DNA of 64,000 nucleotides from NCBI RefSeq assembly GCF_044324785.1, contig NZ_CP172127.1; one strand, given 5' to 3'. This DNA comes from Escherichia coli (GTDB lineage Bacteria; Pseudomonadota; Gammaproteobacteria; Enterobacterales; Enterobacteriaceae). Shown in pieces: positions 3,757 through 44,131 of the stretch; the first letter of the stretch is position 1; each line of letters starts with the position of its first letter. The notes beneath the pieces are model-generated. The model was not told where the DNA came from. It saw nothing but the letters and a program-made list of their open reading frames with translations, and ran no database searches. Made by a program: the position numbers and the translations under genes.

Positions 3757-3764
3757 TATAATGT

Positions 3765-6143: not shown

Positions 6144-6177
6144 AAATAATTTGCGTAATAGTCAACTATGAAATTGT

Positions 6178-8205
6178 TTAGCCAAATCTGACCTTGCAGA
6201 ACATAATTAATTTGCGGTAATAGCGTATTACCCGTCCCGCTTTTTTTCGGGTAATAAACATCGGCTTACGCGGCGTCTGGATTAAATATTCCGCAGCTTC
6301 CTCAACCGTAATAGGCTGTAGCCGTGTTGGGTGAATATATGTTGGGTAAACAATCAACGCCTGATAGATCAAGTCTGCTATCGTTAATTTTTGCTCGCGG
6401 CGCGGGCAATGATGTTCATCAACGGTTAAACCCCAACCGGCATAGAAGGGCAGGCCGTAACAATGAACTTGCTTGCCATGTAATAACGCTTCAAACCCGG
6501 ACAATGATGTCATGGTGTGCACTTCATCTGCGCGCTGAATGCATTGAATAATATCGGCGCCCAGTGCCTGATAATCAGCGAGTTCAGCAGTCAGTTCTGC
6601 CGGAATATCGCCCTTGCGATTCCCCACCAGTACATCCGGGTGCGGTTTATAAACAATGTAGGCGTGCGGATTGCGCTCGCGTACTGTGCGTAATAACTCA
6701 AGGTTGCTCTTAATCGAGACAGTGCCTGTTTTAATGGAGGCATCGTCCTCTACCTGACCCGGCACCAGGATAACTTTTTTATCTTTGGCTTCGGCTGGTA
6801 GAGAGAAATCGGCTCCCAGGTTGTACTTACTCAGTTTGCTTTCAACCAGTCGCTGGCGTAATTTTTCAGCTCGCATCTTCTGCGCCAGCGTTAGCTGGCT
6901 ATGATTCAGCAGCACTTCCAGATCGCTGGGGCGTGTGGCGTCATAGTAAATACCGCGTTTATCCAGCACCAGCGATAGCGGCGGCAGCAGGTCAGAGCCA
7001 AGTCCGGATGAACGCAGAAAACCATCTTCCATTCGCCATAACGGCAGTGATTTTCGCTGCGCTTCGGCTCGCCATTGCTGTTCTCCCTTTACACCCCATA
7101 CCACGCAGGCGCTCGCCGCAGTACAGCGACGTGAAAAACTCAGCCGGTTTGTTGCCGTTTGCAAGAAAGGTTTCAGGATCGCTGACTTCCACAGCGTTAA
7201 GCCTGGCGCCCATAAATAACCATCACGCTGTTGCAGATGTCGACGTTGTAATTGCAGCCATTGCAGCACGGTAAATAGATCGCTTACTTCTCCCGTTTGC
7301 GGATCGATATAGCGACAGTAACGCAGGTATGCAGCGGCAAAAAGTTCCTCCAGCGTGGCAGAACCGCGTCGGGCAGATAACAAAGCGGACTGTGGATGAC
7401 GATCGTCGGTTAAACCCCAACCTGCATACCAAGGCTGGCCGAAACATGTTACTGGTTTTCCTGCCAGCAAGGCTTCAAAGCCGTACTGGGAGGTCACGAC
7501 GTAAACCTGGGAAACGTGTCGCAATAGCGACTGCGGGCTGACATTCTCGGCAATCAAACGTACTCGTTGCGTGGCACGCAGATCAGCGAAATAACCTGTT
7601 TTCTTTCCTTCCAGTACATCTGGGTGCACCTTCACCCAAATTTCGGCTTGAGGATTTTCCGCCATCGCGGCTTCCAGCATGGCAGCAAACTCATGCGGGC
7701 CAGCATTGCCATACGTCACTGACATATCATTAAATGTCTGATCGACAACCAGAACGATGTCTGCACGTTCTGACTCATCAGCCACAAACGCAGGTGCCAG
7801 GTTATATTTCGACAAATCTCCGGTCACGATGGTGTGCATCGCTTCTCTGGCCTGGCTTATCAGAGCTGTATTTCCGGCTTTATCCTGTACCAGTTTCTCC
7901 AGTGCTGAAGGCTTGCTGGCATCGTAGTAAATGCCACAATCATCCACCACCAGAGAAAGCGGCGGCTCGCCATTGACGCCAAGATCCAGCGAACGCACAA
8001 ATCCATCTTCCAGACGAATGACGGGTTTTCCCGCTGCTTTGGCGATGGCGACTGGTTTCGCCGCGCTGGGACGATGTCCCCACACGGCGATAGCATCAAC
8101 TTCTTGCGGAACAGGGCGCAGCAGAGAAAGTTTCTGGCACGGTTGCGCCAGAAATTTCTCCAGATGCGGAATACGCCAGATGCCAGGCGAGTAAATGCCA
8201 ATCAT
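6178..8205 (-). CDS. kpsC: capsule poly-Kdo linker transferase KpsC
   Basis: 675-aa protein with duplicated KpsC-type halves; 4-bp overlap with kpsU stop (translational coupling). Confidence 0.85.
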
Positions 8206-8942
8206 GCGTTTTCAGCCAGTTCCTGTGCCATCAGGGCGCGCACTTTTTCCAGGCATGCTGGGGTGTCGACGCCCGGACCGGTTGCGGCAACCTCAAATGT
8301 GCGGATGTTGATCCCTGCGCTCATCAACCGCAGCTGCTCCAGTGATTCTGCCTGCTCTGGCATGGACTCCGGTAACTGACTGTAGTTTTGCAGCACATCG
8401 CGACGATAAGCGTAAATACCAACGTGTTTCAGGTAGCGCGCTTTTTCAGCATTACGCGGATAGGGAATCGGCGAACGGCTGAAATAAAGCGCATCCTGGC
8501 GGGTATTTACCACCACTTTTACCGTGCTTGGCTCGGTCGCTTCTTCGGCAGAAATCGCGTGGCATAGCGTTGCCACTGGCAACGCGGGATCATCACGCAT
8601 TCCTTGTAACAGCGTTTCTACATCCCGCGGGCGAATCATTGGTTCATCGCCCTGCAGGTTAATGTAGATATCTGCCTCGACTTTATGCATCACCTCGACC
8701 AGCCGATCGGTGCCGGATTCATGATCGTTGCGCGTCATGATGGCTTTCCCGCCAAACGCCTGCACGGCCTTTTCAACACGCGGGTCGTCTGTTGCCACCC
8801 AAACTTCCGCAACGCCCGCCACCTGTAACGCACGCTCGTAAACATGCTGGATCATCGGTTTACCAACAATATCGAGCAGTGGCTTACCCGGCAGGCGCGA
8901 GGAGCCATAGCGAGCCGGAATGACAATAACTGCTTTGCTCAT
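8202..8942 (-). CDS. kpsU: CMP-Kdo synthetase KpsU (3-deoxy-manno-octulosonate cytidylyltransferase)
   Basis: 246 aa, N-terminal [16 protein letters not shown] cytidylyltransferase motif. Confidence 0.9.
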
Positions 8943-8951
8943 TTCAACTCC

Positions 8952-10631
8952 TTACAAAGACAGAATCACTTTTGCACCCACCGCCAACTGGTAAAGGATG
9001 GTGGAAATACCGCGAGTAACTTCAATGTTTTTCGATTCATATTTCGGCAGAACCATAATCTCATCGCCCGGTTTGAGTGAATCCACATCTTCTGCGTTGA
9101 CGGCTGCACCGTTCTGACGAATGACGATAATTCTGGCGTTACCCGATTTCTGCGTCAGGCCACCACATTTCTCGATGTAATCCTCGGTGGTCATACCCTT
9201 CTGCCAGCTCACCGCGTTCGGGAACAGCACTTCGCCATGAACCATAACCAGCGATGTTTTCTCCGGAATATTGATGACGTCGCCATCTTCAAGCAGAACA
9301 GAATCAATATTGGATTCGTTGAGGATCACTTCACCTTTCGGAACAACGGTGCGTGCTTTCGCCACAAAGCGGCTGATCAGTTGTGCTTCCTGCATTCGCA
9401 GGCTGGCTTCTTCTTTGGTGGATGACTGGGCAGAAAGTGATGCTTCCTCCAGCTTTTGCAGCGAGAGATTCAGCATCTCTTTCTGACGCTGAGCCACTGA
9501 TGGGCGATAAAGCTGAACTGCGTTCATCTGCGACATGCTGTTCGGGCGGACTTTTTCCAGAACCGCACGCATAGTGGAACCATAAGGCAGTACCATGGCA
9601 TGTTCACCGGAGTGTGCGCCTTCAACCCGCACCTGAATGGTGCCGGCATAGCGGTCAGTGCTCACGATTAAGGTATCGCCATTTTGCAACATACGGCCTG
9701 GCGCAGAACTGATCGGATAGTATTCGCTGCGTTTTTGCAGCCCCTGTTTACGCATAATCGTAATGTGAGTCGCGCCAGGCTTAGGGCGCGCCCAGCTCAA
9801 CGCTTCCGTTACGGGAATGCTGCTTTCGCGGAACTCAAAGTCGTAGCTGTTAAAGACATCGCCCTGAACGCTGAAAGTATGCTGACGCGGCCCGACGATG
9901 ATGGTGTCACCATCGGCGAACTGCGAAAGCCCCAGTTTGCCGTTCAGCAGGAAGTCGTACAGGTTGACGTTGGAGCGCACGCGGTTACCGCGCTTGACCA
10001 CAATATCAACGTAACTTCCGCGCTCTGGATCAACGCCGCCAGCCTTGATCAGATAATTGAGTAACGAATCAGACGTCACACCGCCATACAGACCAGGATT
10101 ACGCACAAATCCGGTCACGTACACTTTTACTGGCTGCGCCTGTAATAAGGAGGCGTAGACGTTGACGTTGGACTGGTATACTTCCTTCACTTTGGATGTG
10201 ACCAGGGCATTTAGCTGACTATTACTGACGCCAGCAACTTTCACCGGACCAACGTTCGGCAGGAAAATATTACCTTTGGGATCAACCTGTAACGCACCAT
10301 CAAAGGTGAACGCACCCCACAAGCGAACCTGAATGCTATCACCCGGATTCAGAATATAGTCAGGGTTGAATCCTACCGTCGCACCGCTATCTGCGCTGGT
10401 GCCGTTGAAAAGTTGAGCACCAAACATACGGCTCATTACCACCGGCGGTGCGGGCGGCGGGGTATTGTCGAAGCCGCTCATGTTTTGCGTATCCGACTGT
10501 TGCCCGTTCAGAATACCGGTAAGCGGCGCGGCTCCTGTAAGGTTTGGGTCGGCGTTAATATCAATGGCCGCGCTGGCCTGCGCCGCGTGACAGGCGGCAA
10601 TCAGTAAAATTGATTTAAATAATTTCATCAC
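8952..10631 (-). CDS. kpsD: capsule polysaccharide export protein KpsD
   Basis: 559 aa with N-terminal signal peptide (MMKLFKSILLIAACHAAQASA); conserved position in region 1. Confidence 0.85.
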   Translation of the reverse strand: MMKLFKSILLIAACHAAQASAAIDINADPNLTGAAPLTGILNGQQSDTQNMSGFDNTPPPAPPVVMSRMFGAQLFNGTSADSGATVGFNPDYILNPGDSIQVRLWGAFTFDGALQVDPKGNIFLPNVGPVKVAGVSNSQLNALVTSKVKEVYQSNVNVYASLLQAQPVKVYVTGFVRNPGLYGGVTSDSLLNYLIKAGGVDPERGSYVDIVVKRGNRVRSNVNLYDFLLNGKLGLSQFADGDTIIVGPRQHTFSVQGDVFNSYDFEFRESSIPVTEALSWARPKPGATHITIMRKQGLQKRSEYYPISSAPGRMLQNGDTLIVSTDRYAGTIQVRVEGAHSGEHAMVLPYGSTMRAVLEKVRPNSMSQMNAVQLYRPSVAQRQKEMLNLSLQKLEEASLSAQSSTKEEASLRMQEAQLISRFVAKARTVVPKGEVILNESNIDSVLLEDGDVINIPEKTSLVMVHGEVLFPNAVSWQKGMTTEDYIEKCGGLTQKSGNARIIVIRQNGAAVNAEDVDSLKPGDEIMVLPKYESKNIEVTRGISTILYQLAVGAKVILSL

Positions 10632-10651
10632 AAACTCATTCAGCGACAGCG

Positions 10652-11800
10652 TTAGTCTCGGTGATCTTCAATAACAGCCAGCAACAGTTTCAGGGTGCCG
10701 AATAGCAGGCAGCACACCAGTAACCAGCAGGCGATCAAATAAGGGATATTTGGAAAAGACGATTCCTGCGGCAACTGTGGCGAACTGATCACTGACAGCA
10801 CCTTGAGCTTACGAGCCGCTTCTACACGGGTCTTTTCAATGGAGGTCAGGGTCAGTTTGTACAGCTCGGTGTTGAACTCTACTTTTGATTTGATTTCTTC
10901 AAAATCCACCGCCATACGGTTTAGCTTGTCACCCTGCGGCGCTGTGATTTTGCTTTTTTCTTCGTCAATTTGTGCCTGCAATGACTGAATCGCATTACGC
11001 GCACTCACAACTTGCGGGGCGTCTTCACGCAGATACGTCAGCAAGTTCCGCAGGTCCGCTTCCATCTGGATCTTCTGGCCCATCAGCGTATTGACTAACG
11101 TGCTCGCCGCCTGTGCCTGTGCCTGTGGATCCAGAACGTTGTTGTTGTCCTGATAAGAGAGCAATTCCGCTTTGCTGGCGTCCAGACGCTGGCGTGCCTT
11201 TTCCATCTCCGTTTCTGCAAAGGCAAGCTGGTCACGCGCGATGCGATGTGACATCTCATTGATAAAGCGCTCTGACTCTTTCAGCACGGTCTGGTTAAAC
11301 TTAAGCGCAAACTCCGGGCTAAAGCCCTGCGTCTGAATATTCAGTAATCCGGTTTTATCGTCATACGAGACGTTGATACGGTCCTTGTAGTACTTCAGGA
11401 AGCCTTCTGCAGTTTCATCCTTGCTAAGATGATTAAGAAAATCGAGCCCGCTGTGGCTAAACGCTTCACGAAAATTTAGTTGCTTATCCAGTGCCGCCAG
11501 CATATCCGGCGAGTTGATGTACTCTTTCAGATACAACGCATCTTCTGCGGAACTGGGGTTAGAGGCACCCAGAAGCAGACCAAAATTCAGGCTGCCGCTG
11601 TTTAAATCATCCGAGCGTTTAATGGCGACTTTCGACTCGCTCATATAGCGAGGCTGGCTGAAGATAGCCAGATAGATCAGCAGCACCGCCATCGGTGCCA
11701 GAATGATGATTTTCGCCAGGTGTTTTTGGATATCTGCCAGTGAGATGGCAGACAGACGAGCACGCATCCAGGATACGGCAGACTTCACTTTTATCAACAT
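10652..11800 (-). CDS. kpsE: capsule export inner-membrane protein KpsE
   Basis: 382 aa, N-terminal TM segment, coiled-coil middle, C-terminal TM; position between kpsF and kpsD. Confidence 0.85.
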   Translation of the reverse strand: MLIKVKSAVSWMRARLSAISLADIQKHLAKIIILAPMAVLLIYLAIFSQPRYMSESKVAIKRSDDLNSGSLNFGLLLGASNPSSAEDALYLKEYINSPDMLAALDKQLNFREAFSHSGLDFLNHLSKDETAEGFLKYYKDRINVSYDDKTGLLNIQTQGFSPEFALKFNQTVLKESERFINEMSHRIARDQLAFAETEMEKARQRLDASKAELLSYQDNNNVLDPQAQAQAASTLVNTLMGQKIQMEADLRNLLTYLREDAPQVVSARNAIQSLQAQIDEEKSKITAPQGDKLNRMAVDFEEIKSKVEFNTELYKLTLTSIEKTRVEAARKLKVLSVISSPQLPQESSFPNIPYLIACWLLVCCLLFGTLKLLLAVIEDHRD

Positions 11801-11871
11801 GTAACGATTATCAAAGTTTCAGTGGGGCGCAAACTCAATGAGAGACTAACCTCTCGCACCCCGTTGCTTAA

Positions 11872-12855
11872 TTAGTCGAAAATGCGCACAAGGCCAGTGA
11901 CTTTATTTGCCTTGTTGGTCACCAATAACGTTGAGACGCGGTGCTTTTGCATTTTTTCTTCCGCTTCAATGATCATGGTGTCTTCCGGTAGCGTCAGCGG
12001 TTCACGTGTCATCATCTGCGCAGCCGTGGCGGATGTCAGAGAATCCTCTTTTTCCATAAAGCGACGCAGGTCACCGTCGGTGATAATGCCCGCTAGCCCA
12101 CCTTCTGCGTCTTCTACCATCACCATTCCCTGGCATCCGCTGGTGATACGTTGAATCACGGTTTTAAATGACGCATCCAGCTGTACCGCAGGAACATCAT
12201 GCTGCATGACATCAGCAACGCGGGTCAGCAGGCGACGACCTAATGAACCGCCCGGGTGATAGCGCGCAAAATCATTCGGCATAAATTTGCGTTGGTGGAT
12301 CATGGCAATCGCCAGCGCATCGCCGATCGCCATCGTCAGCGTGGTAGACGTTGTTGGTGCAAGATTATTCGGGCAGGTTTCATTCGCCATGTGGAGTTCC
12401 AGCACGGCATCAGCATTTTTCGCCAGCGTGGAATTTCCATTATTGGTAATGGCGATAATTCGGTTGCCGAAATTTTTCAGTGAAGGAACTAGCTTGAGGA
12501 TTTCATCCGTTTCACCGCTGGCAGAAATAAGGATCAGAAGATCGTAAGGCGTAATCATGCCCAGATCGCCATGGAAAGCTTCTGCAGGATGAATAAAGAA
12601 ACTAGGCGTACCCGTAGAGGCCAGCGTCGCTGACATTTTACGACCGACATGCCCTGATTTACCCATTCCCGAAAGAATAACGTGCCCTTTACAGTTCATT
12701 ATCAAATTAAGGACACGCTGGTACTGCCCGGAATCCAGTTGTTTAGACAAGTTTTGTAATGCTGCGCCTTGTTCTGCCAGAGTCTGGCGAACAGAGGTAA
12801 TTAGATATGGATCGATAGTACTGCTCTGGTCATCAGGTAAATGTCTTTCAGACAT
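11872..12855 (-). CDS. kpsF: arabinose-5-phosphate isomerase KpsF (SIS + CBS domains)
   Basis: ORF 11872-12891; start trimmed to MSERHL with AAAGGAG SD; SIS motif GMGKSGHVGRK. Confidence 0.9.
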   Translation of the reverse strand: MSERHLPDDQSSTIDPYLITSVRQTLAEQGAALQNLSKQLDSGQYQRVLNLIMNCKGHVILSGMGKSGHVGRKMSATLASTGTPSFFIHPAEAFHGDLGMITPYDLLILISASGETDEILKLVPSLKNFGNRIIAITNNGNSTLAKNADAVLELHMANETCPNNLAPTTSTTLTMAIGDALAIAMIHQRKFMPNDFARYHPGGSLGRRLLTRVADVMQHDVPAVQLDASFKTVIQRITSGCQGMVMVEDAEGGLAGIITDGDLRRFMEKEDSLTSATAAQMMTREPLTLPEDTMIIEAEEKMQKHRVSTLLVTNKANKVTGLVRIFD

Positions 12856-13990
12856 ATCAGCTCCTTTGCACGGAAATAATGCCACAGTCACAACAAACCC
12901 GAACCCACTATAATTTATTTATGCTAAATCAATGGGTTGTAACAAAATTTTTAATGAATATAAAACCATGGTCAGTCCATGCTTATATGCAGGACTTATC
13001 ACCTTCTTATTAAGTCGCAATGTCTCATGGAGGTGCGAAGATGCTGCAATATTACAGGCGAGAAGGGGAACCAAATTTTGCCCACCTATTTAACACACCC
13101 CTACATTATGAACAAGGAATTTAGGATTTTTATCATTTATTAAAATGTTTCCTACTTGACTATTAAACCAAAAAACAATTTATCAATTGATTATTTCCTT
13201 GTAAAAAAAGAACGTATGACCATGTTATTAATAAATAAAACACGTAAATAATGGTGATGTTGTTTTGTGATTAACTATTTAAGAGTGGCATAATAAACAA
13301 GTTGACAATTTCTATGTAAAGAAGAAGAAAATAATAAAATTTTAGCGGTGACTATTGAATGATATGATAGTTGTGGTGTTGATTATTTCTGGTAATGAAT
13401 GCGGAATTAAATCTGGCCGGATTGTATTTTTGCTATATCTATTTTTCAGGAGATTATTATTAAATATAAAAATAACAATGGTGATTATCTCCGGTTGACC
13501 TGGAGTCACGTATGCCAGCGAGTGCTTTCTTCCGGGCCTTCCTTCACTTCAGAGAAAAAGAGGCAATCATCAGGCTCTTTTTGAGTCATATGCGCCGATA
13601 ATCAACTGTCTTGAACGTAAAAATTATGGAGCAACATGATGCTACGATTCATTTCACTCTTCGTTCTTTCTGAGCATTGCGTTCAGGATGGTCAGCAATT
13701 TACGCATACTGTCAACCAGCGCCACTTTTTTGGTTTTTCCGGCTGCTGACAGATGCATGTAAAATGCCTTTATCACCGGATTAAACCAGGTTACCACAAG
13801 CGCTGCCATGTGCAGGGCTGCTCTTGCCTCCGTACGCGCACTGGCGTCGTTCGGCCAGCAGATATGTGTGGGATAACAGGGATGTTATGTGAACTGAACT
13901 GTGTTTTGTTAGCGGGGGGATGTTTATTGATGATTCGGGAGTGTTTAAGACCTGATGGCGTTATGCTCCCAAGTTTATTTTATATAAAGA
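12856..13990 (-). promoter_or_regulatory. kps region 1 promoter and long AT-rich upstream regulatory region
   Basis: 1.1-kb AT-rich non-coding stretch upstream of kpsF; region 1 is known to have a long regulated upstream region. Confidence 0.4.
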
Positions 13991-18957: not shown

Positions 18958-21804
18958 TCAGAAAGTCACATTCAGCGTGGCCTGACCGTTATAACCTTCA
19001 GCGCTGCTGCCGCTGACACTGTGGGCATAACCGGCCTGAACGCCCAGGGTGATATTTTCCCGGACACGGGCTTCCAGTCCGGCCTGCAGGTCCAGTGACG
19101 TGCCATTCCGGGACGGTGAGAACGTCATGTTACTGCCGGCGGCGGCTGTACCCATGCTCATGTCACCCCGGGAGCTGAAAGTGCGGATAACAGAAGGCTG
19201 TACCCACCAGTTCACCGGCAGTTCACTCACACGGTGTTTTGTACTGTCGCGCAGAGTGTCACGGGATGAGGTGCCTTCGCCAAAGGTCATATCGTTGTGG
19301 CTGCCCAGACGGAAGCCGGCACGCACATGTTGTGTACTGCCATGCCCGAACTTCACATAACCGGCGTTATCCTGGCCGTCATCCAGGGAGAGCCCCTGCC
19401 AGGTGTACTGCAGTTGTGGCTCCAGCATCAGGTTGTCAGTGATACTGAAGGGCAGACCGGTTTCCAGTGAGCCCAGCCAGCCCCAGCCCCGGGCGCGGAA
19501 GTCGTTATTGTCCGATGACGCTTTCATGCTGTGGCGGGTTCCCTGTGCCACAATGTCAGCCCACAGGCCGGAGGACGTGTGTGTCAGATTCAGGTATCCG
19601 CCCAGGCTGCCGGCATCATCCCGGACCGTGCCGGCGCGGGAACCGTCATCATCCTTAACATCAACGGAAGAATGGCCTGCAGCACCATATACCCCTGTCG
19701 TCAGAGACATACCGGCAACCTCTGTTCTGAGCAGGTCACCCTCCAGATGGACGAAGCCATAGCTGCCGCTGCTTTCCGGCGTGGCTCCACGGGCAATACC
19801 GCCGTTGTTATCGTGACCGAGATGACCGCCCTGAATGCTGAGACGGACGCTGTTATTTTCACCGCTTACACCGGTCTGATGGCTGCGGGAGCCTGCCAGA
19901 ATCCGGTCATAGTCCATTGCCTGTGTCAGCATGGAGGCATACAGGGGGACTTCAGCACGATAAGCATTTTCACTGCGCAGGTACCAGTCTTCATCGCTGT
20001 CACGGTTCAGGGTGTAGTTAAAGGCTCCGGCCTGAAGCGGGCGACTCAGGGCAAACGCACCTTCTTCTGTGGTGGCACCATTCTGTGCATCCACAACCCG
20101 GATACCCTGTCCGGAGGTTGCCACCCCGAGGTTACTGTTTCCGACATTTGTAAACGCAAGCCAGGTTTTGCCGGTTGCCTGACCACCATTAATCACCAGC
20201 TGGTCAGAGGTATTGCTGCCATCAAGGCGAACACGCATATTGATGGTGCCACCCTGACCGGTGAGGTTACTGGTTGTCAGTTTATGGAACGTTACCGGGG
20301 CGTTGCCTTTTGCAACAGCACGGCTCAGTACGGCATCCGGTGTTGTCTGATTGTCAAAGTAAATCTCCCCTGCGTTAACAATATCGCCGGTACTGACCAC
20401 ATCACCATTCAGTACCATGCTGGCGCCTTTACTGAGCTGTGTTCTGCCACTCAGACTTCCCCCGGCAGCCAGCATCAGTGTTCCACGATGTCCGACAGTG
20501 GTGTTGCTGGCCTGTCCCCCGGCATTAACCGTAAAGCTGCCGCCATTTTCCAGCAGCAGGTCGCTGGCCTGACCGGATATGCCATCAATACTGAACTTAC
20601 CGCTGGCATTGGTCCCCTCAACAGTGGCACCACTGTCTGCTATCAGGGCACCACCGGATGTCATGGTGACATCTGTTGCCTTACCACCGGCAGACACTGC
20701 CAGGGTACCGCCGTCATCCACCAGTGTTTTCTGCGCTGAATGGCCCTCCAGTACATCCAGGCGACCGCCGGACTCCAGAACAACGCCGTCAGCCTTACCG
20801 TTTTCCACTGTGAAATTGCCCAGACGGTTGCTGCCGGTGACGGTTGCCGCCGTACTGGTGACCAGTGCGCCGCCCTGCGTCAGGGTGACATTCGTGGCTG
20901 TACCACCGGCGTTCACCTGCAGTTTGCCTTTCTGGTTAACGGTGGTGAAATCCGCCAGACCACCTTCCTTGATAATCTGCCAGCCGTCACTGTTAACAAC
21001 AGTGCCAGACGCCGTACCGCCGTTGTGCACATACTGGTACCCCCCATTCAGCGTGGTATCCAGTGCGTGACCATGTACAGTCTGGTCGCCGCCGGCATAA
21101 ACCACAGTGGTATTTGCCGTTCCTTCAGCAGCCACAATCTGACGACCATTTTTATTGATGGTGGTGCGTACGGCATCTCCGTAGACGGTCTGCCCGGTAT
21201 CACCATTTTCCGCATCCGGTCCCCCTTCCGCGCCGGTATTCACAACCGTGTCGGTTGCCACTGCGCCGGATTTGACGGCCTGCCAGCCCTTCTCATTAAT
21301 GACGGTACCCGTTGCAATCCCGCCTTCATGTACCCACTGCTCACCGCCGTTCAGCGTGGTGTTCACTGCCTGCCCCTGAAGGCTCTGTCCGCCTCCGGCA
21401 CTGATAACCGTGTCTGAAACGCTTCCTCCGGCATTCACTCTCTGAAGACCACCACCGGTGACAGTAGTGTTGTTGGCGATACCGCCATTTTGTATCCATT
21501 GCCCGCCGGTATTGACCTCGTTATCCGGCCCATACTCCAGCCCGGTACTGATGGTCATTCCGTTGGTCGTACCGAAGACAATCTGGTTGTCATGATTTTC
21601 CAGTGCTCCGCCGCTCACGGTTTCTCCCGCCTGTACAACCGTGTCAGCAGCCAGTGCCGGGACTGATGTGACAGCAGCAAGAGACAGCGCAACCGCCACA
21701 CCGGCGCGTTTTCCCCGTGAGCGGGCCAGTTCGGAGGCCACCACCAGGGTGCCCGTAATGTGATTCCATACCAGCCTGTAGCTGGTGTTCAGATGTCGTT
21801 TCAT
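18958..21804 (-). CDS. flu: antigen 43 (Ag43) self-associating autotransporter adhesin
   Basis: [31 protein letters not shown] signal region, repetitive Gly/Thr/Asn-rich passenger, C-terminal beta-barrel ending ...TLNVTF; start trimmed to MKRHL (948 aa). Confidence 0.85.
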
Positions 21805-22017
21805 CAGCTTTTCCTTACAGAGGGTGAATAAAAAAGCCGGTACCCACAAATGTGGATACCGGCAGGTACAAAACAGCATGGTCAGATAAAGTGTTTTTTC
21901 CCGGACATAAATGCTTCCCCTCTCTCATCCGCCAGAGAAGTATCAGTCCGTTGTGTGCAATTCCGTTCTGCATGATGAAGAGATTCAGCTGCCTTTTCGC
22001 AGGCCATTAACCACTAT

Positions 22018-22060
22018 AAATGATCGATTGTGACGATCGATACCTGTTTTATCGATCGTT
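22018..22060 (-). promoter_or_regulatory. agn43 phase-variation switch: three GATC Dam sites (OxyR operator region)
   Basis: GATC at about 22022, 22035, 22054 in TGATCGATTGTGACGATCGATACCTGTTTTATCGATCG, about 220 bp upstream of the flu start. Confidence 0.6.
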
Positions 22061-22176: not shown

Positions 22177-23112
22177 TCAGAAGAAAATCCAGTTCCATAC
22201 CGCGCGGGCAACAGAGACCACGGTGTCACGGACGGCACGCAGAACCGTACGAGCCACAGAGGCAACACAGACGCTCTCCGCCGTGTCAAATATCCGGTCC
22301 ACCGCACCGGTAAACTGTTCACGGGCCTGCCCCCGGACAGATTCCGTGCACAGCTCGTCCTGCAGGCGGGTCATCAGGGGACTGGCGGCATGGTCGGGAA
22401 GTGCTGTCATGAGCGCACTGACCAGCGTATCCAGTTCCCAGCCGGTGCGGGCCGATACGGCCACAACCGGATGTACGGGCCGGAACAGCCGGAATACCGC
22501 ATCTGTTTTCTCACGAATGTTCTGTTCCTGTGCGGGAGAAGGCTGAATACCTGCCATATCCCATTCATGGCAGGGCTCCGTTTTGTCGGCCTGCGTCACC
22601 ACAAACAGCACCTGCTGATGTCCCCGGTGCAGGATGTGTCGCCAGAAATAGTCATCCACAGACAGGGCCCGGTCATCGGCTTTAATCAGCCACAGTACCA
22701 GGTCAAGTTCAGGCAGAATGTCACGGTACAGGGCTTCATACTCTGCATCCCTGTCCCGGCTCTCGCCCACCCCGGGCAGGTCAGTGATAACCATGCTGTG
22801 ACCATGGCCACTCAGACGGAAGCGCTGCACTTCCCGGGTGCCGGCGTGAACATCACTGACCGGGGTGACCTCCCCCTGAAACAGTGCATTACAGAGTGAG
22901 GATTTACCGGCCCCGCTTTTTCCCATAATGCCAATCACGGGTTCGTGGCTGGTGAGTTTGCGCAGATGTTCCAGGATGTGACGGGAAAGTGAGTAAGGCA
23001 GGGAGGAGAGCGGTTTTTCAATTGCCTCAATGGCATCAGACGGATTCATACATGTATTCCCGGTGAAAAAAGACAAAACCCCGCGCACCGGAAAGGTGGC
23101 GGGGGGATTCAC
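22177..23112 (-). CDS. YeeP/YfjP/YkfA-family GTPase
   Basis: P-loop GIMGKSGAGKSSL; true start may be the internal Met at about 23049. Confidence 0.75.
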   Translation of the reverse strand: MNPPATFPVRGVLSFFTGNTCMNPSDAIEAIEKPLSSLPYSLSRHILEHLRKLTSHEPVIGIMGKSGAGKSSLCNALFQGEVTPVSDVHAGTREVQRFRLSGHGHSMVITDLPGVGESRDRDAEYEALYRDILPELDLVLWLIKADDRALSVDDYFWRHILHRGHQQVLFVVTQADKTEPCHEWDMAGIQPSPAQEQNIREKTDAVFRLFRPVHPVVAVSARTGWELDTLVSALMTALPDHAASPLMTRLQDELCTESVRGQAREQFTGAVDRIFDTAESVCVASVARTVLRAVRDTVVSVARAVWNWIFF

Positions 23113-23278
23113 GGAGATAATATCTGCCTGAAATTATTTGGAATGCAGGTATATGTGGCTGATTTGTATCAGCTAATGAGTACAGGTCTGAATCTAATCT
23201 GACAGTCCGCTCTGTGCCAGGAGCGGACATTGTTTTCCAACTATTACCTAAGCCTGCGAACCATCTCATCTTCACCCC

Positions 23279-24166
23279 TTAAATTCTCAATGTATCGATA
23301 ACCGCTCGTAGGGCGGGTGACACATTGCGGTGCGGATAATAGATATATGAACCCTCCAGGCGTTGGCTGTAGCATTGCAAAACTCTGATTAGCGCCCCCT
23401 GTTCTATATCATCAGACACTAATTCCTCCGGAACATAAGCCAGCCCCAGACCTAGCCTTGCGGCTTTGGCTTCCATATAACTGTCAGCAAAGGCCCATTG
23501 TCCCTGAGGCTGATGGGTGATCTTTTTACCGTCCTGATTGAGTTCCCAGGCATACAGACTGCCGTCGCCGAACTGGTAAGCGATGCAGGGATGACCTACT
23601 AAATCGGTGGGGGTTTGTGGAAATCCGTAGCGCTGAAAGTGCCCGGGCGTGCCGACAACAGCCATCTCCATATCGGGCGAAATGCGCACCGCAACCATAC
23701 CGCTATCCACTTCCGAGCCCAGACGTATACCGGCATCGAAGCGCTCAGTAATAATATCGACAAACCGGCTTTCGCTGATGAGCTCCAGCCGAATATCCGG
23801 GTATCGTTGTTTAAACACCGCCAGCTTCGGCAGCAGCACTTTATCAATGGCGTGCTGGCTCGCATTAATTCGGACCGTACCCGATGGTGTATGGCGATAA
23901 TGGGCCAGCGTGGCAAGCCCCATATCTAAGGCGTCAAATCCAGATTCGACGTTTCGATAGAGTAACTCGCCGGCATGGGTGAGCGATAACTTGCGCGTGG
24001 TGCGTACCAGAAGCTGCACGCCCAGTCGCTCTTCCAGCTCGCGCACTGCACGGCTAATTCCTGACTGCGCCAGGCCAAGCCTCTGCGCGGCGGCGGTAAA
24101 ACTCCCTTCTCGCACGACCTGCATAAACAGATAGAGATCGTTATAGTTTTCCCGTTTCGCCATCAT
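23279..24166 (-). CDS. LysR-family transcriptional regulator
   Basis: N-terminal HTH FTAAAQRLGLAQSGISRAVRELEERLGVQLL and LysR substrate-binding region. Confidence 0.85.
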   Translation of the reverse strand: MMAKRENYNDLYLFMQVVREGSFTAAAQRLGLAQSGISRAVRELEERLGVQLLVRTTRKLSLTHAGELLYRNVESGFDALDMGLATLAHYRHTPSGTVRINASQHAIDKVLLPKLAVFKQRYPDIRLELISESRFVDIITERFDAGIRLGSEVDSGMVAVRISPDMEMAVVGTPGHFQRYGFPQTPTDLVGHPCIAYQFGDGSLYAWELNQDGKKITHQPQGQWAFADSYMEAKAARLGLGLAYVPEELVSDDIEQGALIRVLQCYSQRLEGSYIYYPHRNVSPALRAVIDTLRI

Positions 24167-24318
24167 CCTTCCCCTGCTGCATCACAATTCAGAACAATAT
24201 GTTATTAATCTTAGCATTTTTTACCCTCTAATTAGCACTATTAATGCTAACTATAATGTGCGCGTTGCAACAAAGCACAGCAGTGTTATCCGTATGAAAC
24301 CAGTATCTGGCACATTTT

Positions 24319-25470
24319 ATGAGGGGGATTTTGATGACTGCTTTCACCCAAAAATTGACAGCCGCGATATCCACCATGCTGTTATGCGTATCATTAAGTG
24401 GAGTCACAAATATGAGTTACGCTGATACAACCAATCCGAACGCGCCCGTTTCGCAGGTCGAGAAATGGGATAAAACTTTTGCTGAGAGCACGAAAGTTGA
24501 TCACCGTAAGGTGACCTTTCCGAACCGGTACGGGATCACCTTAGTCGGGGATCTCTATATACCGAAGGATCGTGGCGATCGCAAGATGGCAGCAATTGCT
24601 GTTAGTGGCCCCTTCGGGGCGGTGAAAGAGCAATCCAGTGGCCTGTATGCGCAGACGCTGGCTGAACGGGGGTTTGTCACTCTGGCTTTTGACCCTTCAT
24701 ACACGGGGGAAAGCGGCGGCTACCCGCGAAACGTCGCATCTCCGGATATCAACACCGAGGATTTCAGCGCGGCGGTTGATTTCTTAGGCCTGCAAAAAGA
24801 GGTGGATCGCAACCGTATCGGGTTGCTCGGCATCTGCGGATGGGGTGGCATGGCCTTAAACGACGCCGCGATGGACACACGTGTCAAGGCGGTGGCGAGC
24901 AGCGTGATGTATGACATGAGCCGTGCAATGGGGCATGGCGTGGGCGATGGCAAAGACCGCTATACCACTGCCGATCGTCGTGCCGTATTGCAGTATTTGA
25001 ACATGCAGCGCTGGAAGGATGCTGAAAATGGCGCTTTCGCGCCAGGCGGGCATGATATTTACGTTGATGAGAAGGGCAACGTCACCGCTTCCGATCGTAT
25101 TTTACCGGAAACTTTGCCAGCGAATTCTAATCCGGTATTGAAAGAGTTCTTTGATTATTACCGCATGCCGCGTGGTTTCCATGCGCGTTCGGTCAACTCA
25201 ACCAGTGCCTGGAATGCAACCATGCCGCTGTCATTTATGAATATGCCGCTGCTGAGTTACGCTAATGAAGTTACTATCCCTACACTCATCGTGACCGGTG
25301 AAAAAGCCCATTCACGCTATTTTGCTGAAGATGCCTTTAAGGCAATCGGCAGCAAAGAGAAAGAGTTAGTGATTGTCCCCGAGGCAAACCATGTTGATCT
25401 GTACGACAACGTTGCGGGTAAGATCCCATTTGCCAAATTTGAGCAATTTTTCAAGGCAAACTTAAGATAA
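24319..25470 (+). CDS. secreted alpha/beta-hydrolase fold protein
   Basis: Signal-peptide-like N-terminus; nucleophile elbow GICGWGG; likely start is the ATG at 24334 after GAGGGGG. Confidence 0.7.
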   Translation: MRGILMTAFTQKLTAAISTMLLCVSLSGVTNMSYADTTNPNAPVSQVEKWDKTFAESTKVDHRKVTFPNRYGITLVGDLYIPKDRGDRKMAAIAVSGPFGAVKEQSSGLYAQTLAERGFVTLAFDPSYTGESGGYPRNVASPDINTEDFSAAVDFLGLQKEVDRNRIGLLGICGWGGMALNDAAMDTRVKAVASSVMYDMSRAMGHGVGDGKDRYTTADRRAVLQYLNMQRWKDAENGAFAPGGHDIYVDEKGNVTASDRILPETLPANSNPVLKEFFDYYRMPRGFHARSVNSTSAWNATMPLSFMNMPLLSYANEVTIPTLIVTGEKAHSRYFAEDAFKAIGSKEKELVIVPEANHVDLYDNVAGKIPFAKFEQFFKANLR

Positions 25471-25646
25471 CCCGAAAGGTTTACCAGGCCACCTGTCGTA
25501 AACGGGTGGCTTTTAACTGCCTGGTGTGATGCAGAATATGCCGCATCTCCCTATATTCTCACCCAACTATTATGTCGTTATTCCCTGAATAACTTCTGAC
25601 CCGATTGCGCTTGAATCTGGCTGGTTCGATATTAAGGGGGCTAATA

Positions 25647-26840
25647 ATGTCCACTGTAAGTCTCAAACAATTATACGGAAAAACGCATGCATACTGGAGC
25701 GGCGTATTCGCCATGACGCTTTGCGTGTTTGTGCTGATCGCTTCTGAGTTTATGCCAGTCAGCCTGCTTACGCTCATTGCCCATGATTTGCACGTTACCG
25801 AAGGGCTGGCAGGGCAAGGAATTGCTGTCTCTGGTGCGCTGGCGGTGCTTACCAGTCTGACTATCTCCCGTATTACCGGAGACCTGAATCGAAAATATCT
25901 TCTGCTGGGGCTGACGGCCTTAATGGCCATATCGGGAATAGTTATCACCATAGCACCTGACTATCCGGTTTATATGCTGGGGAGGGCCCTGATTGGTATC
26001 GTCATTGGAGGGTTCTGGTCAATGTCGGCTGCAACCGCCATTCGGCTCGTGCCGAAGCAGCATGTCCCCCGCGCACTGGCAATTTTTAACGGCGGAAACG
26101 CACTGGCCACCGTTGTGGCAGCGCCACTTGGTAGCTATCTGGGGACAACCATCGGCTGGCGTGGGGCCTTTTTATGTCTGGTCCCCCTTGCGATAGCTGC
26201 GTTCATCTGGCAATGGGTCAGTCTGCCTCCGATGGAAAGTGATAAAACACAAAAGCTACAGAGATCTGTGCTTCGCCTGTTCAGCGTTGCCATCGTACCA
26301 ACGGGACTGCTGGCCTGCGGACTCTTCTTTATGGGACAGTTTGCTTTATTTACCTACGTGCGCCCCTTTCTGGAGAGCGTCACCAGAGTGGGACCTTCTG
26401 ATCTTTCTCTGATTTTGCTCGCAATAGGTGTAGCAGGTTTTGTCGGCACAATGATCGTCTCAACATTCCTGAACACCATATTTTATAAGACCTTAATAAT
26501 GATCCCGTTGCTTATGGCAGCGATTACCGGTGCGTTACTGCTGGTCGGACACCATATCTGGGCTGTTGCCGTTTTACTCAGCCTGTGGGGGCTACTTGCG
26601 ACAGCTGCGCCAACGGGGTGGTGGACATGGATAGCACGCGCGTTACCCGAAGATGCAGAGACGGGGGGAGGCCTCATGGTTGCAGTGATTCAGTTATCTA
26701 TTGCACTTGGTTCAACGGCTGGAGGTCTGGTATTCGACAGTCTGGGATGGAGAAGTGCTTTTGGTTTAAGTGGTTTGTTACTTCTGGGAGCGGTAGCGAT
26801 GACATGTGCCACATCCCGTCAAAACAGGAAGGCGCAGTAG
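25647..26840 (+). CDS. MFS transporter
   Basis: About 12 predicted TM segments; start trimmed to the ATG with AAGGGGG SD (track ORF begins 25605). Confidence 0.8.
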   Translation: MSTVSLKQLYGKTHAYWSGVFAMTLCVFVLIASEFMPVSLLTLIAHDLHVTEGLAGQGIAVSGALAVLTSLTISRITGDLNRKYLLLGLTALMAISGIVITIAPDYPVYMLGRALIGIVIGGFWSMSAATAIRLVPKQHVPRALAIFNGGNALATVVAAPLGSYLGTTIGWRGAFLCLVPLAIAAFIWQWVSLPPMESDKTQKLQRSVLRLFSVAIVPTGLLACGLFFMGQFALFTYVRPFLESVTRVGPSDLSLILLAIGVAGFVGTMIVSTFLNTIFYKTLIMIPLLMAAITGALLLVGHHIWAVAVLLSLWGLLATAAPTGWWTWIARALPEDAETGGGLMVAVIQLSIALGSTAGGLVFDSLGWRSAFGLSGLLLLGAVAMTCATSRQNRKAQ

Positions 26841-29302
26841 CGCAATCCTTTTATTTCTGGCGTACGCTCTTTAAGGCATCCGGCTGAGAGGCTAATGATC
26901 ACTCCTCGCTCACAACGGACCTTCAGCTCAGCCGCTCCGGCCGCTTCATGCCATGAATGTACGCAGCCAGTCAGAATATTAAGGTGCGGATTTCAGTTCA
27001 CTTGTCAGCCCAGTGATACAGGACAGTAATGACCAACAATTTGGTATTGATACAACAAGTTGCGGCCCCGGTTCGTGGGGGAGATGAAACGACGGTAGCT
27101 GAAGTTACTGAAATGAAGAATTCAGAGAGACTGAATGATATGCCTCACCTTTAGTGAATAGTGTAAAAACGGGAGACTCTCACCCGAGATTATCCACTCA
27201 TGCTCAATGTATAATTTTCGTGCCCCTCACAGGTAAGAGCCGGATGCATTCGTTGTGTACGTTGCAGAATTGGTAACCGGGGACCCTGCAGTCTTTAACT
27301 CCGAGTCTTGTGCTGCTCATTTGCCACAAAATCCTGGTACGCCAGCTCAATCATTTCATTCAACAGTTTTTTTGGGGGGCACCACGACTTCGGGCAATAC
27401 TTTCAGGCTGTTTGTGGATTTTTCCGGACAGTTTCAGCGGAACGGAACCATCAGCACGTTCATCACGCCTTTTTTGTTGCTCCCGGGCACTTTTCAGTTC
27501 ATCCACAATATAGCTGCTCTTCTCGCATTTTTGCCGATTTTAAAAATGCGAACAAAACATCCGTACATGATGTACAGATTAAACTGCCAGGGACTGGTGT
27601 CAGAAAGCCTCCGGTTAGCCTGCTCTTTCCGGAATGTGCCGGTTATGAAAAACCGGAAATTCAGTCTCTGTTGTAAGATGTACCCTCTGATACTACGTTT
27701 TCGTTTTCTCTGTGTATTTAACTCACTGTATTTATTGTCTTTTTAAGCCTGACTGATATTCTCCGGTCATAGTGTGCCGGATAGACATCCCGTAACCTTC
27801 TCATTTTTATATAAAAATACCTGCACTGTCTTCAGCGCATCTGTCTCCTTTAAGTAAAAAATGTTTTCACGTATTGCTGTAAATTCATTTTAAATCAGTA
27901 TGTTATCCTGATATTGCTGTCTCCTGGTTTGATGCGTAATCGTTCTGCCTTTCTGGATGATTCTGGTGCTTCCGGGTGCATTCTCCTCTGCACATGCAAC
28001 AGTTCGTCATCGCCACGTGCCCAAAAAGCATATAAAAACGAATCGAATCTGATCGTTTTTTCAATCGTTTTTCACAGGAATTTCGTAGGGTGTTCTCCGC
28101 TATAGCCTCCATATTTGCTGTCTTTTTCTTCATAAATCGTATGCAATATAACCAGTCTGTCAAGACATCTTCCCTGCTGTTGAGGTGACGATCTCATTTC
28201 TGGTCTTTTCCGGGAGAGAGACGGTCAGATGAGCGAGCCGGATTTACTGCCAGAGGTACTCCCCGCGGCAGAAAATAGTGCTCCTGTTTCCGCAATCCGG
28301 GATCGGCAACGTCCCATGGTTAATGCCACTTGCAGCGTCAGGCACTGCAGGTTTACGTCGTGATCTGATTTCTTCTGCACTTATCCCGATCACGGAAGTT
28401 CCCCCTGCGCAGACATCGGTTCCTGCCGACATCTCACAATACCGCCAGGCTGTCATGCAGTAACACCCGCAATGCGGTCTGCGGTTTTAAGCGCACTCTC
28501 CTGTTTTCAGTGCACCGATAAGCGTTATAGAAAGTCTGGGGTGAGTTACTGAATGTCTGTTAAGTGGTGCCGTGGGTGGAGACTGCTTACTTTTCCACAG
28601 CAACTGCAGTCATTCAGGATGCTCAGGAGAGAATATGTCAACGCCACGAGCCGGGCCATTTTCATGCCAGCCAGTATATTTTCTACACTGATGCAGTCTG
28701 ATTTTCACCATTCCATCCTCACTGATTGTCGTGTTGTTTTGGGTCATCACCACAGCTTTCCGTTTCTCTTTTAATCGGTAACGCTCTCCTTTGATATTCA
28801 GCGTGGTTGAGTGATGCAGCAGTCAATCCAGGAGCGCTGTTGTCCGGCAACCACCATATCAACTTCTTCCCGGCGTGCCGGCGCTGGTATCCAGGCCGGG
28901 TTTCGAAGCGAAGCGTTCCTGACGGACTCATTGACATCCGGGCCGGATGTAGTCATGCAGCATGGAACGTCCGCCCGTATACACTGACGGCGTCCGGCCG
29001 TGTACAGAGATCGGTAAAATTCGTTACTACAACTGTTCCTGAATATCTGACGAAGAAACATTCAGCAATAACATCCGGCCGTGTACATCTCTTTTGCGGT
29101 GCAGGGAGCACTGTCGCCATGTACTTATTGTCACCAGGGTGAGGCATGTACCGCAGCATGCCAGCTCAGCAATGACAGGATGCCCTTAAGACATCCGTCA
29201 TGGCTCAGTATGATGACGACGAACACGCTCTGCAGGTGAGCATGCAGGGCCGGGGGTATCATCATTTCCGTATTTTGCCGCACCTTCCGGAAACAACCGG
29301 CA

Positions 29303-42868: not shown

Positions 42869-44131
42869 CTATTTTAATGGATTGTTAATCTTTGCATATT
42901 CAAACGGGCTGATACATTGTTCTCTGTTCGCACCCAGAAAATCTGCCCACCACTGTAGCATCAGTCGACGTTCTTCCAGATGTTCTGCTTTATGGATATA
43001 TGCAGCACGTACACCATTACGCTCCTGATGGCTCATCTGACGTTCCACAGCATCGCGGGACCACAAACCTGATTCAATCAATGCACTGCACGCCATCGCC
43101 CGGAATCCATGACCACAGACTTCCTGGGTTGTGTCATATCCCATCACCCTCAGGGCTTTATTTACAGTATTTTCACTGATCGGTTTACGCGGGTCATGTG
43201 CTCCCGTAAAGATCAGACCATTTTCACCAGCCCATGTCTGTAGTTCTGTCAGTATGGCTACAGCCTGTTTGCTGAGTGGCACAAGATGTGGTGTTCGCAT
43301 CTTGGAGCCCCGGTGTGAGTATTTTACGCCTGGCAGAGGTTCGCGTTCGGCTGGAATAGTCCACATGGCATTGTCAATATCAATTTCAGACCAGCGGGAA
43401 TATCTGAGTTCACTGGAACGAATAAAAACCAGTAAATTCAGCATAACTGCCAGTCGGGTGACAGGCTGACCTTTATAACCGTCAATACGCGACAGAAGTT
43501 CAGGCAGGCGTGAAAGATCCAGAGCAGGGCGATGCTGGCGTTTTACCGTGGTCAATGCACCAGCCATATCCAGAGCCGGGTTATATCTGATGATGCCAGA
43601 CTGTACGGCATAACGCATTACAGCAGATATTCTTTGCTGCAGACGACTGGCGATTTCATAAATTTGTTTTGCTTCTGCAGCACGAACAGGGATAAGCAGG
43701 TCCGGGGTATTGAGTGTTGTGATATCCCGGTTGCCGATAAAGGGGAAAACGTGTGTCTCGAGGCTTTTGATTACTTTATCGCTGTGTGATTGTGCCCATT
43801 GTTTATTACTGGCATGCCAGCGTCGTGCAATATGTTCAAAAGAGAGTTGTAAATCAGGGACTACTTTTTTAGCTCTTTTTTGTTCGCAAGGGTCAATCCC
43901 CTCTGAAATCAGTTTTCGGGCCTCATCCCGTTTTGTACGAGCTTCGGAGAGAGAAACTTCTGGATATACACCAAGTGCCAGAGTCTTCTCCTTACCCAGA
44001 ATACGATAACGGAGACGCCAGTAACGGGAACCATTAGGATGAACCAGCAGGAACATGCCAGCCCCGTCAGTGAGTTTATAAGCCTTGTCAGTGTGCTTTG
44101 CAGCCCGGATTTTTGCGTCAGTCAGTGCCAT
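42869..44131 (-). CDS. P4-type (IntA-like) tyrosine integrase
   Basis: 420 aa; MALTDAKIRAAKHTDKAYKLTDGAGMFLLVHPNGSRYWRLRYR N-terminus typical of P4-family integrases; next to tRNA-Phe 3'-end repeat. Confidence 0.85.
   Translation of the reverse strand: MALTDAKIRAAKHTDKAYKLTDGAGMFLLVHPNGSRYWRLRYRILGKEKTLALGVYPEVSLSEARTKRDEARKLISEGIDPCEQKRAKKVVPDLQLSFEHIARRWHASNKQWAQSHSDKVIKSLETHVFPFIGNRDITTLNTPDLLIPVRAAEAKQIYEIASRLQQRISAVMRYAVQSGIIRYNPALDMAGALTTVKRQHRPALDLSRLPELLSRIDGYKGQPVTRLAVMLNLLVFIRSSELRYSRWSEIDIDNAMWTIPAEREPLPGVKYSHRGSKMRTPHLVPLSKQAVAILTELQTWAGENGLIFTGAHDPRKPISENTVNKALRVMGYDTTQEVCGHGFRAMACSALIESGLWSRDAVERQMSHQERNGVRAAYIHKAEHLEERRLMLQWWADFLGANREQCISPFEYAKINNPLK

Follow-up and report, generated by a model that had tools for sequence, protein, structure and literature searches.

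We analysed a 64,000-nt stretch of Escherichia coli DNA (contig NZ_CP172127.1; hereafter, the window) and found that three neighbouring genes, encoding a LysR-type regulator, a probably exported alpha/beta hydrolase, and a transporter of the major facilitator superfamily (MFS), are one conserved module, as judged by synteny and selection. The module occupies a 3.67-kb cargo segment of a genomic island. The GTPase gene next to it is, on the evidence of homology breaks, island backbone outside the cassette. By its sequence, the LysR protein is closely related to OvrB, a published regulator of virulence.

An earlier note on this DNA had described the four genes as a GTPase, a LysR regulator, a secreted hydrolase, and an MFS transporter inside an island. 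All four are intact open reading frames (ORFs) at the coordinates and on the strands that it gave, in agreement with Pfam and RefSeq; RefSeq also annotates them, with the same products, in the identical DNA of several E. coli chromosomes. The coordinates in that note were the limits of the longest ORFs; here the probable starts are used, and all positions are those of the window.

22177-23049, minus strand: GTPase, 290 amino acids (aa); longest ORF 22177-23112, probable start 23049 from the RefSeq annotation and the YkfA alignment
23233-26901, no strand assigned: cargo segment with the LysR, hydrolase, and MFS genes, 3,669 bp, delimited by homology breaks
23279-24163, minus strand: LysR-type regulator, homologue of OvrB (Z0346/ECs_0309), 294 aa; longest ORF 23279-24166, probable start 24163
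24334-25470, plus strand: alpha/beta hydrolase of the PA2218/YcjY family, 378 aa; longest ORF 24319-25470, probable start 24334
25647-26840, plus strand: MFS transporter, OpdE/NepI-like, 397 aa; longest ORF 25605-26840, probable start 25647

Cargo and backbone of the island

The island is of the CP4 type, lies on the pheV side, and adjoins the antigen 43 (Ag43) gene and the kps capsule genes. The genes around the cassette, according to the annotation of the identical region in strain NRZ14408, encode Ag43, DUF932, antirestriction, RadC, CbeA/CbtA, and AlpA proteins and an integrase, which bears out the placing of the four genes inside an island. The genes follow one another on the minus strand as GTPase, Ag43, DUF905, DUF932, antirestriction, RadC, DUF987, CbeA, and CbtA. 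This module, from the GTPase through Ag43 to CbtA, is conserved and is present in K-12 CP4-6 as well. In strain NRZ14408, the corresponding island terminates at an integrase gene beside tRNA-Phe.

Homology to the O114:H49 island runs through the GTPase gene, stops at 23232, and resumes at 26902; in strain ESM1.4, it resumes at 26906. Because homology to islands without the three genes breaks at 23232 and 26902, we regard the GTPase gene as backbone and the LysR, hydrolase, and MFS genes as the 3.67-kb cargo. In other strains, the same slot holds alternative cargo, namely an ETEC_3214-family gene, IS100, or genes for a TonB receptor and an ABC transporter. The chromosomal cassettes of Klebsiella, Hafnia, and Rahnella are homologous to 23263-26827, an interval that begins at the LysR stop codon and ends shortly before the MFS stop codon (26838-26840). 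No direct or inverted repeats above chance were found flanking the cargo segment.

The GTPase matches Pfam MMR_HSR1 (PF01926; 3e-15) and is 49% identical to K-12 YkfA, the alignment beginning at Met22 of the long ORF. It contains the motifs G1 (GKSGAGKS), G3 (DLPG), and G4 (TQAD); with this domain, these motifs, and its position in the CP4-type module, it belongs among the YkfA/YeeP/YfjP island GTPases. A PADLOC scan of the GTPases in the window yielded merely a weak LeoBC-like P-loop similarity.

Conservation of the three-gene module

We scanned one genome per species and compared 80 loci holding the hydrolase gene, counting a partner if it scored more than 200 bits and lay within 2.5 kb. A related LysR gene was near the hydrolase gene in 20 of the 80 loci, an OpdE-like MFS gene in 17, and both in 13. 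All of the partner-bearing loci were from Proteobacteria (alpha-, beta-, and gamma-) and included Enterobacterales, Aeromonas, Psychrobacter, Acinetobacter, Cricetibacter, Vogesella, Luteimonas, Sphingomonas, Novosphingobium, Bosea, Brevundimonas, and others. Hydrolase homologues of Bacteroidota, Firmicutes, and other phyla had no LysR or MFS partners, and the distant homologues on a Helicobacter-like contig and in a rumen metagenome likewise showed no such linkage. The linkage was seen in two gene orders; in alpha-proteobacteria and Pseudomonas, the MFS gene lies ahead of the hydrolase gene in one direction of transcription. The triad in the order of the window occurs in unrelated chromosomal contexts in Klebsiella michiganensis, in Rahnella (beside csgDEFG), and in E. 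coli O55:H7 and O157:H7 (beside paoABCD). A GTPase gene beside the cassette was found in none of about 90 other loci. The small cassette proposed in the earlier note is upheld in that the LysR, hydrolase, and MFS genes are conserved together; the GTPase gene is backbone and not a member.

Between the window allele and the alleles of Klebsiella, O55, and Rahnella, the synonymous divergence (dS) was 1.1-2.6, and the ratio of nonsynonymous to synonymous divergence (dN/dS) was 0.04-0.14. Such strong purifying selection at dS >1 means that the cassette genes are old and functional. The window cassette is a separate allele lineage, closer to those of Klebsiella and Citrobacter (89-92% protein identity). 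The window allele is present in 98 and the O55/O157 allele in 912 of 5,426 complete E. coli genomes.

The LysR-type regulator

The regulator has both domains of its class, HTH_1 (PF00126; 6.8e-24) and LysR_substrate (PF03466; 3.5e-36). It is 83% identical to ECs_0309 (OvrB) over 294 aa, with only four differences in the first 60 residues, so that the helix-turn-helix is nearly identical. It shares with OvrB this identity and the synteny with z0347/z0348 homologues; its location differs from that of ovrB in O-island 9 beside paoABCD, being between the GTPase gene and the pseudogene debris of the pheV-side island. Identity is 43% to the Pseudomonas aeruginosa LysR protein adjoining OpdE and 40% to K-12 PgrR (YcjZ).

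Identity to K-12 PerR is 29% (96 bits), which is the level of the LysR family only, and orthology with PerR was ruled out. K-12 YagP, also 29% identical, was rejected as a remnant of the cassette LysR gene.

The hydrolase

The start at 24334 is preceded by a GAGGGGG ribosome-binding site and agrees with the RefSeq annotation. The features of the coding region that we refer to are as follows.

24334-24423, plus strand: signal peptide
24835-24837, plus strand: codon of Cys168
25390-25392, plus strand: codon of His353

The protein contains a single N-terminal hydrophobic segment with a probable cleavage site after SYA30 (SYA|D motif) and no lipobox. By these features, which were judged by rule and are not the output of a predictor, the hydrolase is probably exported and periplasmic; the "secreted" of the earlier note holds in this sense.

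The protein gave a Pfam match of the PETase/dienelactone hydrolase type (2.3e-8) and matched PDB entries 2HDW (PA2218; E 2e-121 over residues 9-376) and 5XB6 (YcjY; E 1e-40); a solved structure of unknown function with 60% identity to it already exists. Weaker similarities were all to ester or lactone hydrolases: PETase-like enzymes, MHETase, bis(2-hydroxyethyl) terephthalate hydrolase, ferulic acid esterase, dienelactone hydrolase, and the UilS lactonase. In the alignment, Cys168, the sole cysteine of the mature protein, takes the place of the catalytic serine in the GxSxG hydrolases 8B4U and 9PJB (G-L-S-M-G). The nucleophile elbow, which follows strand 5, reads G-I-C-G-W-G and thus is not strictly GxCxG. 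His353 is nearly invariant among the homologues. The fold homology over the whole length, together with the nucleophile and the C-terminal histidine, places the protein in the PA2218/YcjY family, and the alignment suggests that it uses Cys168 as a cysteine nucleophile.

In the literature on ECs0309-0311, YcjY, and PA2218, we did not find functional data on the hydrolase. A review cites a prediction that YcjY is a possible polyhydroxybutyrate polymerase, made from its GxCxG-like motif.

The MFS transporter

The transporter, of the DHA1 type, matches Pfam MFS_1 (PF07690; 1.7e-39), and a crude hydropathy scan gave about 12 hydrophobic segments, as expected of the MFS fold. Its named relatives in NCBIfam (NepI, the PRK03545 sugar efflux model, Cmx/CmrA, and AraJ) are all exporters. 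The protein scored below every equivalog cut-off, its best scores being those of exporter models. The NepI model was the best-scoring named model and aligned end to end; because its 275 bits are below the equivalog cut-off of 584 bits, the protein is not to be called NepI. It is 61% identical over 388 aa to a P. aeruginosa MFS protein whose cluster is named OpdE, and it has both this OpdE homology and the linkage to a PA2218-type hydrolase gene.

The LysR-hydrolase spacer

The LysR and hydrolase genes are divergent and 170 bp apart (24164-24333). We aligned the spacers of 13 alleles, in which the synonymous sites of the genes are saturated, and found two nearly invariant blocks, 24187-24216 and 24228-24257. 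They contain the following features.

24192-24204, no strand assigned: 13-bp box GAACAATATGTTA, consensus TAACAATATGnTA, of the T-N11-A type with an inner dyad AACA/TGTT, in the first invariant block
24211-24216 and 24232-24250, no strand assigned: three TTAGCA/TGCTAA hexamers, one at 24211-24216 and two in the dyad TTAGCA-N7-TGCTAA at 24232-24250, together spanning 24211-24250, in invariant columns within CTAATTAGCAC
24252-24257, plus strand: TATAAT, candidate -10 element of the hydrolase promoter, identical in 12 of the 13 alleles (TAGAAT in Aeromonas)

The block 24228-24257 contains CTAATTAGCA-N7-TGCTAA, followed immediately by TATAAT. The dyad, which was also picked up as an inverted repeat (I14), covaries in its two halves across the alleles, with TTAGCA/TGCTAA in the window and TCAGCA/TGCTGA in Rahnella. 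A TAATC/TAATT motif recurs in the matching spacers of Aeromonas, Luteimonas, P. aeruginosa, Bosea, Brevundimonas, and K-12 pgrR-ycjY.

Taking TATAAT as the -10 element would put the boxes near -66, -50, and -23, an arrangement that resembles the multi-site layout of LysR-controlled promoters. On the opposite strand, TGnTAAGAT (24216-24208) could serve the LysR gene itself. A divergent target and T-N11-A-type dyads are features of LysR-type control, and the TAACAATATGnTA box and the AGCA-N7-TGCT dyad are candidate sites from the sequence. The conserved spacer repeats beside TATAAT support, by inference only, local control by the LysR protein.

Two further observations were made in the spacer. 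At 24190 and 24192, the window allele has TTCAGAAC, where other Enterobacterales have TTTATAAC (CTATAAC in one; Aeromonas has TAATAAC). In the TTCAGAAC variant, the outer T of the T-N11-A box is replaced by G, and a TGnTATAAA-like element on the LysR strand is lost; this change may alter LysR autoregulation in the window lineage. Most Enterobacterales alleles also conserve the region downstream of TATAAT (24258-24310, GCGTTGCAACAAAGCACAGCAGTGTTATCCGTATGAAACC...). The idea that this leader forms a structured RNA or riboswitch was considered and rejected, as there was no Rfam match, only one weak predicted hairpin, and no compensatory changes.

The hydrolase-MFS gap

The gap between the hydrolase and MFS genes is 176 bp and contains two features.

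25486-25516, plus strand: terminator-like hairpin with a T-run (11-bp G+C-rich stem, then TTTT), 16 nt past the hydrolase stop codon
25577-25593, no strand assigned: perfect palindrome GTTATTCcctGAATAAC, GTTATTC-ccc/t-GAATAAC, of the T-N11-A type, 54 bp upstream of the MFS start

The hairpin was missed by a terminator scan and was revealed by RNAfold and the comparison of alleles. Every Enterobacterales allele, and that of Psychrobacter, has a hairpin at the equivalent place, built from a different stem sequence. Because the place is kept while the stem sequence differs, the hairpin is under selection for its structure, the simplest role for which would be that of a partial terminator. The palindrome has no other exact match in the window; Klebsiella, Rahnella, and Hafnia retain it, and the short-gap O55 and Kluyvera alleles lack it.

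In a single operon controlled by the LysR protein, no terminator or control site would intervene between the hydrolase and MFS genes. The earlier note had put both genes under LysR control; one operon under LysR is too simple a description because of the conserved hairpin and the separate palindrome in the gap. The two genes are linked and yet probably not equally expressed, and the MFS gene may have its own control.

Proposed function and alternatives

From the gene content, boundaries, homologies, synteny, selection, and motif conservation described above, we consider it somewhat probable that the cassette is a self-contained accessory unit in which a ligand-responsive OvrB-type LysR protein controls a periplasmic Cys-hydrolase, a separately tuned OpdE-type exporter accompanies it, and a small molecule of the ester or lactone type is handled; binding, the direction of regulation and of transport, and the substrate class are what we infer here. 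The LysR protein would bind the conserved repeats of the 170-bp spacer and repress its own promoter, and with a small-molecule ligand it would activate the hydrolase promoter (TATAAT, 24252-24257). The hydrolase, exported to the periplasm, would cleave an ester, lactone, or thioester bond of the small molecule. The MFS transporter would carry the substrate or the product over the inner membrane, most likely outwards; its level would be lower and tuned separately, by read-through of the hairpin at 25486-25516, by its own site near 25577-25593, or by both.

Several points weigh against this scheme. A consensus promoter scan gave no promoter in the spacer; TATAAT was not reported because there is no good -35 element. 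The strongest dyad is at about -23 from the inferred start, which is unusual for a primary LysR site. The hairpin and the palindrome suggest that the hydrolase and MFS genes may be regulated differently, perhaps by another factor, and the MFS gene is missing from three Enterobacterales loci and from Aeromonas. In the hydrolase, the candidates for the acid position are imperfect: the residue after the G322 strand is E or D in most homologues and K, A, or T in some, and D355 and D358 are invariant but oddly placed. The literature on OvrB covers LEE promoters (of the locus of enterocyte effacement, LEE) and adherence only, and LysR control of the hydrolase and MFS genes is not among its subjects. 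The direction of transport and the substrate are guesses.

An unlikely alternative that nevertheless deserves attention is an uptake or catabolic module, in which the periplasmic hydrolase frees a usable product, the MFS transporter imports it, and the LysR protein senses it in the cytoplasm and induces the genes. This logic suits a cytoplasmic sensor combined with a periplasmic enzyme. With the MFS protein below the NepI cut-off, homology leaves the direction of transport unfixed, and the MFS gene precedes the hydrolase gene co-directionally in alpha-proteobacteria and Pseudomonas. However, the exporter function of every NCBIfam-named relative speaks against import, and no downstream catabolic genes are conserved with the module in the loci compared.

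The accessory-cassette scheme can also be carried further. The ancestral role of OvrB-type regulators may have been to sense a small molecule of their own Cys-hydrolase and OpdE-type exporter, and the sensor may have been repeatedly rewired into virulence control in E. coli (LEE in enterohaemorrhagic E. coli (EHEC); in the extraintestinal-type island of the window, targets such as the nearby Ag43 or capsule genes). We consider this extension doubtful. If it were true, the ligand would be a host- or diet-derived virulence cue, and the same module could explain the old OpdE-OprD/imipenem phenotype of P. aeruginosa. The virulence-cue reading of the ligand, equally doubtful, is not drawn from the present data.

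It is improbable that the LysR protein acts mainly in trans as a virulence or global regulator, as OvrB does, with the hydrolase and MFS genes as mere neighbours. OvrB, at 83% identity, acts at the LEE1 promoter and promotes adherence and colonisation, and z0347 and z0348 deletions are without effect on adherence or LEE expression (PMC6768210, PMC8565820). The strain type of the window, however, has no LEE in this region, and the triad is kept under purifying selection in many non-pathogens far beyond Escherichia, with the spacer motifs conserved along with it; moreover, an absent adherence phenotype is uninformative about local regulation.

A role in cell-wall peptide recycling, in the manner of PgrR-YcjY-MpaA, with the hydrolase acting on peptidoglycan-derived periplasmic peptides, is very improbable. 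The window proteins are paralogous to PgrR (40%) and YcjY (33%), and the PgrR regulon is annotated as peptidoglycan recycling (PMC5934670). Against this, no mpaA, ycjG, or mppA homologues lie beside the cassette in the loci compared, YcjY itself has no established activity, and YcjY is cytoplasmic (no signal peptide in the alignment), whereas the window hydrolase is probably exported.

A functional pair of the GTPase and the LysR protein, by analogy to ykfA-perR, is barely credible: the two genes are adjacent on the same strand, and K-12 CP4-6 also has a GTPase gene by a LysR gene, but synteny contradicts the pairing (in none of about 90 other loci is there a GTPase gene by the cassette), the backbone homology ends between the two genes at 23232, the GTPase backbone bears other cargo elsewhere, a second GTPase in the window has different neighbours, and the window LysR protein and PerR are unrelated beyond the family level.

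Other features of the window

The region to the right of the cargo (26902-29300) consists of pseudogene debris, namely a frameshifted hypothetical gene and a fragment like an AAA ATPase or IS21 istB; this debris is common to islands carrying other cargo, with 87-99% identity. The Ag43 autotransporter gene (18958-21879, minus strand) is intact; an ISEc12 insertion interrupts it in NRZ14408, whose sequence is otherwise identical in this region. Between the GTPase stop codon and the Ag43 start, an Rfam IS102 RNA match was found at 21823-22059 on the minus strand (64.8 bits; gathering score 46), and GATC-rich palindromes lie within or next to it at 22023-22060. The RNA match has the position that isrC has upstream of flu in K-12 CP4-44. 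The region 21823-22060 is probably the phase-variation control region of Ag43.

An integrase gene (42869-44131) closes this first island, and a second CP4-type island follows directly (45253-60331). It contains a GTPase gene (52045-52929) whose product is 36% identical to the first GTPase, a WYL-domain regulator gene (51162-51842), and YagK/YfjJ and DUF3987 genes; the neighbours of the second GTPase gene are quite unlike those of the first. Two convergent ORFs, 53035-53997 (plus strand, 320 aa) and 53994-54863 (minus strand, 289 aa), fill the cargo slot beside the second GTPase gene, and neither has a Pfam or PADLOC match. None of the complete genomes of the collection matched more than 80% of 40000-64000, and no tRNA gene was found anywhere in the 64-kb window.

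At the other end of the window, where the kps export genes (4935-12891) are preceded by two large ORFs (247-3756 and 3866-4885), the G+C content of 1-5000 is only about 30%. In appearance, this segment is region 2, the serotype-specific part, of a group 2 capsule cluster.

Comparison with known systems

As a sequence feature, the cassette is a conventional arrangement of a LysR gene with a divergent target. The family of every component is known already, and the cassette itself has been described in its O157 allele. What is new here is the correct relatives, the boundaries of the cargo, the breadth of the three-gene linkage, the candidate Cys nucleophile, the spacer motifs, and the internal hairpin.

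The earlier note had likened the GTPase and LysR genes to the ykfA-perR neighbourhood of K-12 CP4-6. The likeness stands for position: CP4-6 has a GTPase of the same family (49%), the same island module, and a LysR gene in the adjacent cargo slot. It fails for descent, with the LysR protein only 29% identical to PerR, and K-12 perR is followed by IS911/IS30 and lacks a hydrolase or MFS gene. On these comparisons, the resemblance between the window and CP4-6 is positional and not by descent. For annotation, the backbone (GTPase) is separated from the cargo, and the PerR analogy is replaced by OvrB/O-island 9, OpdE/PA2218, and PgrR/YcjY.

The transporter can be compared with NepI (YicM), a purine ribonucleoside efflux pump; despite the end-to-end alignment, the score (275 vs 584 bits) makes the window protein a paralogue.

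In K-12, PgrR (YcjZ) and YcjY form a divergent pair of a LysR protein and a YcjY-family hydrolase of the Cys type, with 40% and 33% identity to the window proteins, and their spacer holds TAATC repeats. PMC5934670 lists the ycjY/ycjZ spacer as bound, and ycjY-ymjDC-mpaA as regulated, by PgrR. Among experimental precedents for a LysR protein that controls a divergent hydrolase gene of this family, this pair is the best. It differs from the window cassette in that YcjY lacks a signal peptide in the alignment, there is no MFS partner, ymjD-ymjC-mpaA follow in the ycjY operon, and PgrR is a repressor. O157 Sakai has a further divergent pair of a YcjY-type hydrolase and a LysR protein, ECs_0332/ECs_0333, beside a flavin oxidoreductase gene (24952-26955 of the compared stretch); the pairing of LysR and YcjY-family genes therefore recurs several times within E. 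coli.

In P. aeruginosa, a LysR gene is divergent from an MFS gene (OpdE) that is followed by the hydrolase gene (PDB 2HDW). The same three families are linked, and the hydrolase is exported in both, as predicted for the window; the order is permuted, with the MFS gene before the hydrolase gene, and PA2218 has a lipobox (LVGC), whereas the window hydrolase has a plain signal peptide. The LysR protein and the hydrolase of this locus are PA2220 and PA2218, respectively. Disruption of opdE is cited as raising imipenem resistance (PMC12690498), which is the sole phenotype on record.

The closest known system is O-island 9 of E. coli O157:H7 (z0346 ovrB/z0347/z0348, or ECs_0309-0311 of Sakai), which has the same three genes in the same order and orientation, with identities of 83% (LysR), 87% (hydrolase), and 70% (MFS) and the same spacer motifs. 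The two differ in allele (about 78% nucleotide identity, dS >1) and in site, O-island 9 being beside paoABCD. The activator OvrB, of the LysR type, has been shown to bind DNA; it acts on the LEE1 promoter, to which it binds, and favours adherence and colonisation (Liu et al. 2019, PMC6768210; PMC8565820). Deletion of z0347 or z0348 affected neither adherence nor LEE expression, and the authors left the function of both open (PMC6768210). LEE1, the only known target of OvrB, is not part of the window context, and the window has no LEE. An EHEC virulence regulator with unexplained neighbours, a P. aeruginosa imipenem/OprD locus of 1992, and a structural-genomics protein, which the literature that we found leaves unconnected, appear to be one conserved module, and its ligand or substrate would explain all three.

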